Positions 20,287-26,496 of a DNA stretch of 64,000 nucleotides are shown piece by piece; position 1 is the first letter of the stretch; each line of letters starts with the position of its first letter. This DNA comes from Octopus sinensis (lineage: Eukaryota). A program made the translations under genes and the position numbers. The notes under the pieces are model-generated. The model saw nothing but the letters and a program-made list of their open reading frames with translations. It searched no databases and was not told the DNA's origin. The stretch covers positions 143,344,001-143,408,000 of the forward strand of contig NC_042998.1 in assembly GCF_006345805.1 (NCBI RefSeq), read 5' to 3'.

Positions 20287-23200
20287 ATCCGTAATAATGA
20301 AGGGTGAAATTAATTAATTTGGAAAAATTATCAATTACACCAAGTAGTCTTCGGCATGTAAAAGCCTCATTCGAGGAAAATTTAAGTAATACTAAGCAAT
20401 AAGGGTTTAGCAACGAGTTGCCTTACCACATACCGAATTTAGAAATAGCAGTCAAAGGGTTATAGCTATTCTTCTACTAAAAAGGGAGATCTCAGTAAAA
20501 ACAGCATTTGGAAGGCAGACACAAACAGGTAAGAGAGAATGAATTGACTGCAATCTATCATACATTTTTTTAGTTATCCACGGACGTACGTTTCGAAATC
20601 AAGTTTTTAGGAAAGCATAAGAATTAAATATTAAATATTAAATAATTCTATCTTACCGAAACTTTTTTCTCTTCAGCGTAGAATACTATAATCATAAATG
20701 ATTATATATTGAATTTTGAGATACCAGAAGGCACCAACTCAACTCAGTATCAGAGCGAGCTAGAATCCGCAACTGGTATCACCGAATTCAATTTGTGAAT
20801 GAAACGATTGTGTCAACAGCCCCTTCCCACCCGCGTGTAGCCAAAACAAGATGCTGTGGTCATCTACTGAGATAAAATATGGTTATCCGTAATAATGAAG
20901 GGTGAAATTAATTAATTTGGAAAAATTATCAATTACACCAAGTAGTCTTCGGCATGTAAAAGCCTCATTCGAGGAAAATTTAAGTAATACTAAGCAATAA
21001 GGGTTTAGCAACGAGTTGCCTTACCACATACCGAATTTAGAAATAGCAGTCAAAGGGTTATAGCTATTTCTTCTACTAAAAAGGGAGATCTCAGTAAAAA
21101 CAGCATTTGGAAGGCAGACACAAACAGGTAAGAGAGAATGAATTGACTGCAATCTATCATACATTTTTTTAGTTATCCACGGACGTACGTTTCGAAATCA
21201 AGTTTTTAGGAAAGCATAAGATTAAATATTAAATATTAAATAATTCTATCTTACCGAAACTTCTTTTCTCTTCAGCGTAGAATACTATAATCATAAATGA
21301 TTATATATTGAATTTTGAGATACCAGAAGGCACCAACTCAACTCAGTATCAGAGCGAGCTAGAATCCGCAACTGGTATCACCGAATTCAATTTGTGAATG
21401 AAACGATTGTGTCAACAGCCCCTTCCCACCCGCGTGTAGCCAAAACAAGATGCTGTGGTCATCTACTGAGATAAAATATGGTATCCGTAATAATGAAGGG
21501 TGAAATTAATTAATTTGGAAAAATTATCAATTACACCAAGTAGTCTTCGGCATGTAAAAGCCTCATTCGAGGAAAATTTAAGTAATACTAAGCAATAAGG
21601 GTTTAGCAACGAGTTGCCTTACCACATACCGAATTTAGAAATAGCAGTCAAAGGGTTATAGCTATTTCTTCTACTAAAAAGGGAGATCTCAGTAAAAACA
21701 GCATTTGGAAGGCAGACACAAACAGGTAAGAGAGAATGAATTGACTGCAATCTATCATACATTTTTTTAGTTATCCACGGACGTACGTTTCGAAATCAAG
21801 TTTTTAGGAAAGCATAAGAATTAAATATTAAATAATTCTATCTTACCGAAACTTCTTTTCTCTTCAGCGTAGAATACTATAATCATAAATGATTATATAT
21901 TGAATTTTGAGATACCAGAAGGCACCAACTCAACTCAGTATCAGAGCGAGCTAGAATCCGCAACTGGTATCACCGAATTCAATTTGTGAATGAAACGATT
22001 GTGTCAACAGCCCCTTCCCACCCGCGTGTAGCCAAAACAAGATGCTGTGGTCATCTACTGAGATAAAATATGGTTATCCGTAATAATGAAGGGTGAAATT
22101 AATTAATTTGGAAAAATTATCAATACACCAAGTAGTCTTCGGCATGTAAAAGCCTCATTCGAGGAAAATTTAAGTAATACTAAGCAATAAGGGTTTAGCA
22201 ACGAGTTGCCTTACCACATACCGAATTTAGAAATAGCAGTCAAAGGGTTATAGCTATTTCTTCTACTAAAAAGGGAGATCTCAGTAAAAACAGCATTTGG
22301 AGGCAGACACAAACAGGTAAGAGAGAATGAATTGACTGCAATCTATCATACATTTTTTTAGTTATCCACGGACGTACGTTTCGAAATCAAGTTTTTAGGA
22401 AAGCATAAGAATTAAATATTAAATATTAAATAATTCTATCTTACCGAAACTTCTTTTCTCTTCAGCGTAGAATACTATAATCATAAATGATTATATATGA
22501 ATTTGAGATACCAGAAGGCACCAACTCAACTCAGTATCAGAGCGAGCTAGAATCCGCAACTGGTATCACCGAATTCAATTTGTGAATGAAACGATTGTGT
22601 CAACAGCCCCTTCCCACCCGCGTGTAGCCAAAACAAGATGCTGTGGTCATCTACTGAGATAAAATATGGTTATCCGTAATAATGAAGGGTGAAATTAATT
22701 AATTTGGAAAAATTATCAATTACACCAAGTAGTCTTCGGCATGTAAAAGCCTCATTCGAGGAAAATTTAAGTAATACTAAGCAATAAGGGTTTAGCAACG
22801 AGTTGCCTTACCACATACCGAATTTAGAAATAGCAGTCAAAGGGTTATAGCTATTTCTTTTTTTCTACTAAAAAGGGAGATCTCAGTAAAAACAGCATTT
22901 GGAAGGCAGACACAAACAGGTAAGAGAGAATGAATTGACTGCAATCTATCATACATTTTTTTAGTTATCCACGGACGTACGTTTCGAAATCAAGTTTTTA
23001 GGAAAGCATAAGAATTAAATATTAAATATTAAATAATTCTATCTTACCGAAACTTCTTTTCTCTTCAGCGTAGAATACTATAATCATAAATGATTATATA
23101 TTGAATTTTGAGATACCAGAAGGCACCAACTCAACTCAGTATCAGAGCGAGCTAGAATCCGCAACTGGTATCACCGAATTCAATTTGTGAATGAAACGAT

Positions 23201-24448
23201 TGTGTCAACAGCCCCTTCCCACCCGCGTGTAGCCAAAACAAGATGATGTGGTCATCTACTGAGATAAAATATGGTTATCCGTAATAATGAAGGGTGAAAT
23301 TAATTAATTTGGAAAAATTATCAATTACACCAAGTAGTCTTCGGCATGTAAAAGCCTCATTCGAGGAAAATTTAAGTAATACTAAGCAATAAGGGTTTAG
23401 CAACGAGTTGCCTTACCACATACCGAATTTAGAAATAGCAGTCAAAGGGTTATAGCTATTTCTTCTACTAAAAAGGGAGATCTCAGTAAAAACAGCATTT
23501 GGAAGGCAGACACAAACAGGTAAGAGAGAATGAATTGACTGCAATCTATCATACATTTTTTTAGTTATCCACGGACGTACGTTTCGAAATCAAGTTTTTA
23601 GGAAAGCATAAGAATTAAATATTAAATATTAAATAATTCTATCTTACCGAAACTTCTTTTCTCTTCAGCGTAGAATACTATAATCATAAATGATTATATA
23701 TTGAATTTTGAGATACCAGAAGGCACCAACTCACTCAGTATCAGAGCGAGCTAGAATCCGCAACTGGTATCACCGAATTCAATTTGTGAATGAAACGATT
23801 GTGTCAACACAGCCCCTTCCCACCCGCGTGTAGCCAAAACAAGATGCTGTGGTCATCTACTGAGATAAAATATGGTTATCCGTAATAATGAAGGGTGAAA
23901 TTAATTAATTTGGAAAAATTATCAATTACACCAAGTAGTCTTCGGCATGTAAAAGCCTCATTCGAGGAAAATTTAAGTAATACTAAGCAATAAGGGTTTA
24001 GCAACGAGTTGCCTTACCACATACCGAATTTAGAAATAGCAGTCAAAGGGTTATAGCTATTTCTTCTACTAAAAAGGGAGATCTCAGTAAAAACAGCATT
24101 TGGAAGGCAGACACAAACAGGTAAGAGAGAATGAATTGACTGCAATCTATCATACATTTTTTTAGTTATCCACGGACGTACGTTTCGAAATCAAGTTTTT
24201 AGGAAAGCATAAGAATTAAATATTAAATATTAAATAATTCTATCTTACCGAAACTTCTTTTCTCTTCAGCGTAGAATACTATAATCATAAATGATTATAT
24301 ATTGAATTTTGAGATACCAGAAGGCACCAACTCAACTCAGTATCAGAGCGAGCTAGAATCCGCAACTGGTATCACCGAATTCAATTTGTGAATGAAACGA
24401 TTGTGTCAACAGCCCCTTCCCACCCGCGTGTAGCCAAAACAAGATGCT
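20287..24448 (-). repeat. Tandem array, about 7 x 600-bp hammerhead-containing units (ribozyme sense on minus strand)
   Basis: Unit starts atccgtaataatgaaggg at 20287, 20885, 21483, 22076, 22672, 23277 and 23878. Copies are nearly identical. No ORF of 60 aa or more inside the array. Confidence 0.97.
20575..20685 (-). ncRNA. Type I hammerhead ribozyme (further minus copies at 21174-21284, 21772-21876, 22363-22474, 22966-23077, 23566-23677, 24167-24278)
   Basis: Plus-strand text tatccacg-ga-cgtacg-tttc...tcttcag-cgtagaata is the reverse complement of the motif at 24940. Confidence 0.85.
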
Positions 24449-24939
24449 AAAGATAACTAAAAAAATGTATGATAGATTGCAGTCAAATCATTCTCTCTTA
24501 CCTGTTTGTGTCTGCCTTCCAAATGCTGTTTTTACTGAGATCTCCCTTTTTAGTAGAAGAAATAGCTATAACCCTTTGACTGCTATTTCTAAATTCGGTA
24601 TGTGGTAAGGCAACTCGTTGCTAACCCTTATTGCTTAGTATTACTTAAATTTTCCTCGAATGAGGCTTTTACATGCCGAAGACTACTTGGTGTAATGATA
24701 ATTTTTCCAAATTAATTAATTTCACCCTTCATTATACGGATAACCATATTTTATCTCAGTAGATGACCACAGCATCTTGTTTTGGCTACACGCGGGTGGG
24801 AAGGGGCTGTTGACACAATCGTTCATTCACAAATTGAATTCGGTGATACCAGTTGCGGATTCTAGCTCGCTCTGATACTGAGTTGAGTTGGTGCCTTCTG
24901 GTATCTCAAAATTCAATATATAATCATTTATGATTATAG

Positions 24940-25049
24940 TATTCTACGCTGAAGAGAAAAGAAGTTTCGGTAAGATAGAATTATTTATATTTAATATTTA
25001 ATTCTTATGCTTTCTAAAAACTTGATTTCGAAACGTACGTCCGTGGATA
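24940..25049 (+). ncRNA. Type I hammerhead ribozyme
   Basis: tattctacg-CTGAAGA-gaaaagaagttt...aaacttgatttc-GAAA-CGTACG-TC^cgtggata. Canonical core and GUC cleavage triplet, predicted cut after 25041. Confidence 0.87.
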
Positions 25050-25537: not shown

Positions 25538-25653
25538 TATTCTACGCTGAAGAGAAAAGAAGTTTCGGTAAGTAAGATAGAATTATTTAATATTTAATAT
25601 TTAATTCTTATGCTTTCCTAAAAACTTGATTTCGAAACGTACGTCCGTGGATA
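25538..25653 (+). ncRNA. Type I hammerhead ribozyme
   Basis: Same motif, predicted cut after 25645. Confidence 0.87.
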
Positions 25654-26140
25654 ACTAAAAAAATGTATGATAGATTGCAGTCAATTCATTCTCTCTTACC
25701 TGTTTGTGTCTGCCTTCCAAATGCTGTTTTTACTGAGATCTCCCTTTTTAGTAGAATAAATAGCTATAACTCTTTGACTGCTATTTCTAAATTCGGTATG
25801 TGGTAAGCAACTCGTTGCTAAACCCTTATTGCTTAGTATTACTTAAATTTTCCTCGAATGAGGCTTTTACATGCCGAAGACTACTTGGTGTAATTGATAA
25901 TTTTTCCAAATTAATTAATTTCACCCTTCATTATTACGGATAACCATATTTTATCTCAGTAGATGACTACAGCATCTTGTTTTGGCTACACGCGGGTGGG
26001 AAGGGGCTGTTGACACAATCGTTTCATTCACAAATTGAATTCGGTGATACCAGTTGCGGATTCTAGCTCGCTCTGATACTGAGTTGAGTTGGTGCCTTCT
26101 GGTATCTCAAAATTCAATATATAATCATTTATGATTATAG

Positions 26141-26252
26141 TATTCTACGCTGAAGAGAAAAGAAGTTTCGGTAAGATAGAATTATTTAATATTTAATATT
26201 TAATTCTTATGCTTTCCTAAAAACTTGATTTCGAAACGTACGTCCGTGGATA
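26141..26252 (+). ncRNA. Type I hammerhead ribozyme
   Basis: Same motif, predicted cut after 26244. Confidence 0.87.
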
Positions 26253-26496
26253 ACTAAAAAAATGTATGATAGATTGCAGTCAATTCATTCTCTCTTACCT
26301 GTTTGTGTCTGCCTTCCAAATGCTGTTTTTACTGAGATCTCCCTTTTTAGTAGAAGAAATAGCTATAACCCTTTGACTGCTATTTCTAAATTCGGTATGT
26401 GGTAAGGCAACTCGTTGCTAAACCCTTATTGCTTAGTATATATATATATATATATATGTATATATATATATATATATATATATATATATATATATA

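Follow-up and report, generated by a model that had tools for sequence, protein, structure and literature searches.

What kind of element is an array of non-coding, hammerhead-bearing units in the Octopus sinensis genome, and how did it come to be there? This question is raised by positions 20286-26439 of a 64,000-nucleotide stretch (contig NC_042998.1, 143,344,001 to 143,408,000; hereafter the window). A first-pass annotation, made from the letters alone, had interpreted the array as a young and large retrozyme giving rise to a circular RNA of about 600 nt. The best explanation we can offer, which we consider probable, is that it constitutes a non-autonomous retrozyme devoid of long terminal repeats (non-LTR) which is reverse-transcribed in a rolling-circle manner from one circular RNA by the enzyme of a Penelope-like element (PLE). 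The extent of the array and its units had been correctly described before, but the features which carry this mechanism, namely a two-arm inversion, targeting of (TA)n and two fixed start sites, had been missed.

Architecture of the array

The array consists of 4163 + 1988 nt corresponding to 10.25 units of 600 nt with a GC content of 35%, in agreement with the about 10.3 near-identical units counted previously. Pairwise differences among the eight full units amount to 0 to 5 substitutions plus small indels, and the longest ATG-initiated open reading frame (ORF) on the circularised unit comprises 47 aa, confirming its non-coding nature. The units are arranged in two opposite arms meeting head-to-head, whose 3' ends both pass into (TA)n, each with a 3-nt overlap:

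20286..24448, minus strand: arm 1 (running from 24448 to 20286), 6.9 tandem units with seven hammerheads; 5' end at unit position 327, 3' end at unit position 298 (site S2), entering (TA)n with a 3-nt ATA overlap
24449..24451, no strand: head-to-head junction, three bases matching neither arm
24452..26439, plus strand: arm 2, 3.3 tandem units with three hammerheads; 5' end at unit position 5, 3' end at unit position 195 (site S1), entering (TA)n with a 3-nt TAT overlap
25646..26244, plus strand: one cut-to-cut unit, the predicted monomer or circle of about 600 nt, with a branched fold
20144..20288, no strand: left (TA)n target tract
26437..26496, no strand: right (TA)n target tract

Beyond the (TA)n tracts, two broken coding PLEs flank the array tail-to-tail. 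Any transcript of the array (20286-26439) spanning the head-to-head junction could fold back into a near-perfect double-stranded RNA of about 2 kb, a likely substrate for editing or silencing; the same layout is present in 28 of the 47 insertions described below.

The hammerhead ribozyme

Ten copies of the motif tctacg-CTGAAGA-[69-80 nt]-GAAA-cgtacg-TC^cgtgga, as reported by the first-pass annotation, are found in the array. Their core (CUGANGA/GAAA/UH, three helices, helix I open) is intact in all ten. Cleavage is predicted after 25041, 25645 and 26244 on the plus strand and after 24175, 23574, 22974, 22371, 21780, 21182 and 20583 on the minus strand:

26133..26256, plus strand: representative type I hammerhead, predicted cut after GUC at 26244; 6-bp stem I, CUGAAGA, 4-bp stem II with internal loop and long extension (76 nt), GAAA, palindromic CGUACG stem III
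24932-25053 and 25530-25657, plus strand: further hammerheads
20571-20693, 21170-21292, 21768-21884, 22359-22482, 22962-23085, 23562-23685 and 24163-24286, minus strand: further hammerheads

Stem II, whose pairing had been described correctly, folds at -13.8 kcal/mol (z -2.5), which is reached by 2 of 200 shuffles; its internal loop lies 4 bp away from the core, at the place expected for loop 2. None of 3000 Markov-resampled sequences satisfied an equally stringent descriptor, compared with 8 of 3000 for a looser one. Among 22 aligned copies, partly picked by the 3' half of the motif, U4 is replaced by C in three and A9 by G in one. Across 21 distinct hammerheads of the window family (A) and its relatives B and C, 95.5% of the cells pair, compared with 15-46% in slid controls. 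Four pairs display changes on both sides, which none of 500 shuffles matches, although the relatedness of the 21 copies inflates this test. Judged by these compensatory changes across subfamilies, the ten type I hammerheads are genuine and under structural constraint.

The hammerhead models of Rfam produced no match to the array, neither at gathering score nor at E<=10, probably because stem II is long; our own descriptor finds all ten copies. The first-pass annotation had pointed to known retrozymes whose tandem copies fold as dimers. In the monomer, helix III can comprise 2 bp and a GUAC loop (+2.4 kcal/mol in isolation), while between two molecules the 8-nt palindrome would form an 8-bp duplex (-10.4 kcal/mol). 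According to these calculated energies dimer folding appears possible, but it is not required since a 2-bp helix III closed by a tetraloop is described as the ordinary invertebrate hammerhead type (PMC7229834).

Genome-wide dispersal and ends of the insertions

Consistent with the dispersal anticipated by the first-pass annotation, the exact hammerhead 18-mer occurs 1,257 times genome-wide (control, 0), and a genome search yielded 685 candidate places, 39 of which were scored. We analysed 44 loci (L numbers in the following), comprising the window, 38 best-hit loci, three further arrays and two loci found beside PLEs; arms and the variants discussed below were counted at >=92% identity, excluding older subfamily hits below 92%. 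These loci hold 47 insertions with 75 arms, 28 of the insertions being two-armed, and 72 of the 75 arm ends enter (TA)n. The 3' ends map to S1 (185-203 nt after the cut) in 44 arms, to S2 (288-312) in 28 and elsewhere in three. One of these three (L189) is a filter artefact: the arm was scored as ending at the cut site only because the error-rich terminal piece did not pass the 92% filter, while inspection by eye places its end at S1 in (TA)n. None of the 75 arms truly has its 3' end at the ribozyme cut. In 25 of the 28 two-arm insertions both ends lie at S1 or S2, and 24 of these 25 use one of each (p 7e-7), while 17 of 19 one-arm insertions end at S1. As TAT or ATA words occur at 35 places in the unit, overlap with the target alone does not pick S1 and S2.

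The 5' ends of the arms, in turn, fall at any phase of the unit. A run-off signal at the cut, suggested by several apparent starts at position 1, was dropped as most of these extend past the cut on inspection. The arms lack terminal direct repeats and end in (TA)n (primer-binding site and polypurine tract had no separate search), and target-site duplications are masked by the (TA)n target. The cut site is crossed by 64 of the 75 arms, hence the template was continuous across it; 58 of 75 arms exceed one unit and the longest reaches 14.6 units, though arm lengths are inflated by the selection of mostly best full-unit hits. Inverted 5'-truncated copies, a microsatellite target and two alternative 3' ends, by which PLE mobilisation is recognised, are all present, and by these marks the insertions of the family carry the PLE signature. 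Short dispersed arrays, fixed 3' ends and inversions rule out ordinary satellite DNA, as the first-pass annotation had maintained.

An insertion at L059:1839-7878 is chimeric: a minus arm of the related family D is followed by a plus-sense D piece which is joined over about three shared bases to nine window-family units, both ends being at S1. It has the appearance of a single event in which the template switched from one retrozyme RNA to a different one, which would imply that one enzyme serves both families. Fragments of the family are present in contigs of four sequencing runs, in some cases passing into (TA)n at S1 or S2; these contigs provide neither starts, ends nor strand and were not used as evidence. 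Among metagenomes, 38 exact motif matches were judged to be due to chance, none being backed by the covariance model (best E 0.028) or by the unit profile.

Array-wide variants and the nature of the template

We regarded a variant as array-wide if present in at least 75% of the covering units. Such variants occur in 26 of the 44 loci, as exemplified by A558G in 6/6 units of L063, C413A and T571C in 4/4 units of L046, and 17 variants of L191, each in at least 12 of 14-15 covering units. At sites covered by both arms (13 loci), 20 of 20 array-wide variants are present in both, a result which the 75% rule itself favours. Presence throughout an array and in both arms is as expected from repeated, rolling-circle copying of one circular RNA. 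Two or more unit-specific variants are common to only one pair of loci, so that heterogeneity copied from a donor array is hardly apparent.

Several points weigh against a circular template or a PLE helper, beyond the bias of the 75% rule and the inflated arm lengths. A mosaic distribution within arrays is seen for twelve variants, and two are restricted to a single arm (L061, L064). The window array equals the consensus; it therefore contains no private variants, and the circle is argued from sibling loci. The assembly is rich in indels, and polishing could have evened out or mixed units. With an anole PLE in vitro, hammerhead cleavage was dispensable and mostly unprocessed RNA was used (PMC11167929). 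Finally, neither of the two PLE families tested shares sequence with the unit.

Part of this evidence would suit an element mobilised by a PLE from the same start sites but copied from a linear multimer, transcribed from an existing array and left uncleaved; its hammerhead would be inherited and slow or dispensable. Such a template accounts equally for the S1/S2 ends, the (TA)n targeting and the arms crossing the cut, and the mosaic variants fit it, as do the dispensability of cleavage in vitro, the report in PMC11167929 that no RNA-seq reads ending at the cut were found, and the failure of eight of nine Xenopus dimers to cleave (10.64898/2026.07.22.740005). Nevertheless, the array-wide private variants would require a one-unit bottleneck at some point. 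Moreover, arrays would shorten with each generation, yet near-consensus arrays of 11.6 units (L035) and about 10+9 units (L189/190) exist, and covariation among subfamilies is seen in the hammerhead stems and in the pairing that spans the cut site. We therefore rate a linear template as unlikely, albeit deserving serious consideration.

Unequal exchange, too, homogenises variants within an array and leaves its ends unchanged. Accordingly, homogenised arrays with unchanged ends would also be expected if PLE-type insertions of one or two units had later expanded locally as minisatellites through gene conversion and unequal crossing-over, as preferred by the authors of 10.64898/2026.07.22.740005 in their discussion, and the arm-specific variants of L061 and L064 would fit. 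We consider this improbable, as variants are common to both inverted arms at 13 loci, substitutions are nearly absent from many arrays, so that expansion would have had little time, and 5' ends occur at any phase across the unit.

Array-wide variants are enriched in A>G in the ribozyme sense (10 of 37 distinct variants versus 5 of 104 singletons, the latter including assembly errors; Fisher p 6e-4), with an A>G:T>C ratio of 10:4 (p 0.035; 44 loci). This may reflect mutation or editing at the RNA stage. ADAR is not claimed as the source, as a 5' G, a context which it disfavours, is present at 3 of 8 sites outside L191.

Fold of the unit and proposed mechanism

Folded as a circle, the family consensus reaches -157.9 kcal/mol compared with -119.0 +/- 6.7 kcal/mol for 40 shuffles; z amounts to -5.8 for the sense and -2.9 for the antisense strand (40 shuffles), and stems I and II are formed. 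Compensatory change is found at 16 of the 154 consensus pairs. Within this fold, one region deserves particular attention:

25748..25950, plus strand: conserved structured domain (predicted fold; unit about 100-305), consisting of a hairpin, a three-way helix with S1 in an unpaired loop, and an AU-rich hairpin just before S2

Both S1 and S2 are located in or beside predicted loops of this domain, and covariation of its helices extends to family D (5 of 44 pairs). The domain is a candidate for the signal at which the PLE enzyme binds and initiates. RNA polymerase III A and B boxes were not found in the unit and runs of four or more U are frequent, for which reason transcription probably occurs by read-through.

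Taking the observed architecture, ends, covariation and variant sharing together, the rolling-circle copying we favour might proceed as follows. Tandem copies would be transcribed, and successive hammerheads would excise the 600-nt monomer, to be closed by a host ligase as in known retrozymes. The reverse transcriptase (RT)/GIY-YIG enzyme of a PLE, acting in trans and possibly as a dimer, would bind the conserved domain and nick both (TA)n strands. Each nick would prime at its own internal AU-rich loop, S1 (~195) or S2 (~290-310), via an overlap of about 3 nt, where the arms are indeed seen to end. Reverse transcription would then round the circle any number of turns, and the joining of two cDNAs at their 5'-truncated ends would create the observed pair of head-to-head tandem arms, while a single-primed event would leave one arm, nearly always from S1. 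Both strands are nicked and extended by a purified PLE (Poseidon element; PMC11167929), a predicted dimer which initiates at two internal sites of the RNA.

As a tentative extension, which falls somewhat short of what we would call probable, a two-subunit PLE enzyme might copy one circular ribozyme RNA from both (TA)n strands, each subunit with its dedicated start site, and the clan formed by the window family and its relatives might be a long-lived, viroid-like RNA parasite evolving at the RNA stage. If so, the two-subunit rule would explain why the PLE "tail" is present at one end only and how inverted copies form, and the clan would comprise 557-603-nt circles whose covarying recognition domain is unlike the terminal repeats of the tested helpers.

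Coding PLEs and the question of the helper

The two coding PLEs next to the array are:

18947..20143, plus strand: 5'-truncated, frameshifted coding PLE with the end of the RT, Cx4CxxC linker and GIY-YIG; own degenerate minimal hammerhead, predicted cut at about 20083
26497..30190, minus strand: near-full, frameshifted coding Neptune-type PLE with upstream ORF, RT, Zn-finger linker and GIY-YIG; own minimal hammerhead (GAAA-CCGG-UA), predicted cut after 26665; ends at its own second 3' site

The left-hand PLE is an independent insertion in the same (TA)n as the array. The right-hand family has 20,099 candidate places and, elsewhere in the genome, open 811-aa frames covering RT and endonuclease (EN). 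In the 811-aa ORF Pfam recognises only RVT_1, and it gives no match for five fragments of the window; GIY-YIG (PF01541) was assigned from the precomputed domains of homologues and from the visible motif. This family, too, possesses two 3' ends, about 40 nt apart and both running into (TA)n, and its head-to-head copies combine one of each in 8 of 8 readable cases (L103 and L105 read by eye; L070 and L074 unreadable). PLEs in general are described as producing inverted 5'-truncated copies with a tail at one end only and a (TA)n bias (PMC8557442). We regard the right-hand Neptune-type family as a candidate helper for the retrozyme.

The first-pass annotation had itself raised the possibility that the unit is simply the terminal repeat (pseudo-LTR, pLTR) of a coding PLE, the loci then being truncated copies. 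The layout, a hammerhead followed by two 3' ends, would match, Xenopus retrozymes resemble pLTRs (10.64898/2026.07.22.740005), and the tests made here covered part of the PLE diversity of the genome (two families, eight proteins). However, units succeed one another without an ORF, and, with the two families and eight proteins tested, no ORF combining RT and GIY-YIG was found in or directly upstream of the repeat. The eight PLE proteins match only 2 of 42 family loci (the window and L044), in both cases with the ORF outside the array. Separate insertions aside, the unit shows no similarity to PLE sequence in 72 PLE loci, the covariance model gives no match below E 0.07 in 41 of these, and searches with the unit, the covariance model and a cis-domain profile revealed no terminal repeat common to unit and PLE loci of the two families. 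Furthermore, both families carry a different, CCGG-loop minimal hammerhead, and the related retrozyme families (577-603 and 557 nt) are non-coding tandems as well. A pLTR of either tested coding family is not what the unit represents, and we hold a pLTR origin of the loci to be highly improbable; remote descent of the unit from a pLTR is likely and compatible with the rolling-circle explanation.

The minimal hammerhead of the coding PLEs (26665-26700, minus strand; loci L069-L110) has the variant core UUGAAAA or UUGAAGA, not CUGANGA, and a palindromic CCGG loop. Locus L108 (G000:C1665:153000-162999) harbours a head-to-tail tandem of whole coding PLE units of about 4 kb, with upstream ORF and frameshifted RT-EN, a tandem logic like that of the retrozyme arrays at full element size. 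Upstream of the right-hand PLE, between (TA)n tracts (30200-30390, minus strand), lies a degenerate hammerhead-like sequence, CUGGAGA...GAAA-GUCA-CGAA-UGAC, for which no model match was obtained.

Related families and classification

Families B/C have units of 577-603 nt, 78-93% identical to the window family, with 784 exact motifs (L142, L150, L174, L181-L188). Family D has a 557-nt period, about 72% identity to the window family, copies which are 99% alike and 1,737 candidates (L231-L233, L149); it, too, appears to be young. Remoter pieces are found at L180, L184, L041, L145 and L042. B/C and D are non-coding tandems as well, all share the CGUACG helix III with A, and the S1/S2 domain is common to the whole clan. 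Stem II measures about 24 nt in D, about 62 nt in B/C and, by a 7-nt duplication, 76 nt in A.

The sequence features by which metazoan non-LTR retrozymes are recognised (PMC7229834, PMC7761336) are all present: dispersed, non-coding tandem units with a type I hammerhead, no LTR structure, GC below 50% and a self-paired predicted circle. On these grounds the window family is a young, dispersed, non-coding family of non-LTR retrozymes and a new one; it may already be catalogued as an unnamed repeat. No published description of the family, or of paired-start two-arm retrozyme insertions, was found in the literature searched, which comprised main texts, largely of freely accessible papers, and the accessible main text of the octopus repeat annotation (PMC13282606) mentions neither ribozyme nor retrozyme.

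The family resembles the retrozymes of coral, mussel and axolotl (PMC7229834, 10.64898/2026.07.22.740005) in its non-coding tandem units with one type I hammerhead each, GC below 50%, a strongly self-paired predicted circle with open hammerhead, and co-existing PLEs. The supposition that it is unusually large did not hold: 600 nt is within the 51-972 bp reported for retrozyme consensus sequences (mean 650 bp in ray-finned fish; 10.64898/2026.07.22.740005) and the "150 to >1000 nt" of PMC7229834. In contrast to metazoan retrozymes, stem II in the window clan is extended to 62-76 nt beyond the internal loop (about 24 nt in D), and the hammerhead is missed by Rfam models. The accessible parts of these sources contain no description of retrozymes inserted as two head-to-head arms, targeted to (TA)n or starting from two fixed, paired 3' sites. 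For metazoan retrozymes expression and circles have been demonstrated, whereas the window family is known from genome sequence.

With Neptune-type endonuclease-bearing (EN+) PLEs (PMC8557442; PMC4209133) it shares partial-tandem and inverted 5'-truncated copies, the (TA)n bias, a hammerhead upstream of the 3' end whose helix III is palindromic, and two alternative 3' ends ("tail"). It differs from them by the absence of an ORF, start sites about 100 nt apart instead of 30-40, a canonical CUGANGA core and the lack of sequence similarity to the two co-resident coding families tested. Newt and axolotl satellite-2 likewise consists of hammerhead units in tandem, which can dimerise through a palindromic helix III, but has units of about 330-350 bp and about 126,000 hammerhead motifs in axolotl (PMC7229834), compared with about 1,300 exact motifs in the window family, which forms short dispersed insertions with transposition scars.

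That PLE enzymes copy circles into cDNA of more than unit length was proposed between 2014 and 2020 (PMC4209133, PMC7229834), and in the texts consulted mobilisation of retrozymes by PLEs is supported by shared hammerheads, tandem layout, co-occurrence and sequence kinship. The window family adds direct genomic scars, namely PLE-type ends, strictly paired start sites and array-wide variants in both arms, and its value as genomic evidence for this long-proposed model lies in these mechanistic scars more than in its size. Its 600-nt unit, with both start sites mapped and (TA)n as the defined target, is moreover a compact substrate, and PLEs with open frames reside in the same genome. Rolling-circle copying, the role of PLE hammerheads and the way in which PLE inversions and tails arise thereby become amenable to tests in vitro.

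Other features of the window

An isolated, deleted, GC-rich pseudo-copy of 18S-ITS1-5.8S ribosomal DNA (10464-12400) ends near a (TA)n tract and is preceded, after an N gap, by a GIY-YIG-like PLE relic read by eye (~9880-10400). At 44992-48446 (plus strand) an ORF2 broken by stops and resembling that of a long interspersed nuclear element exhibits visible motifs of an apurinic/apyrimidinic endonuclease, an RT and a C-terminal zinc finger; its possible ORF1 is located at ~43000-44500. A 3' fragment of another non-LTR RT (55272-56836, minus strand) has a restriction-like endonuclease motif, as read from the translation, and a short interstitial TTAGGG-like telomeric repeat is present at 39489-39566.

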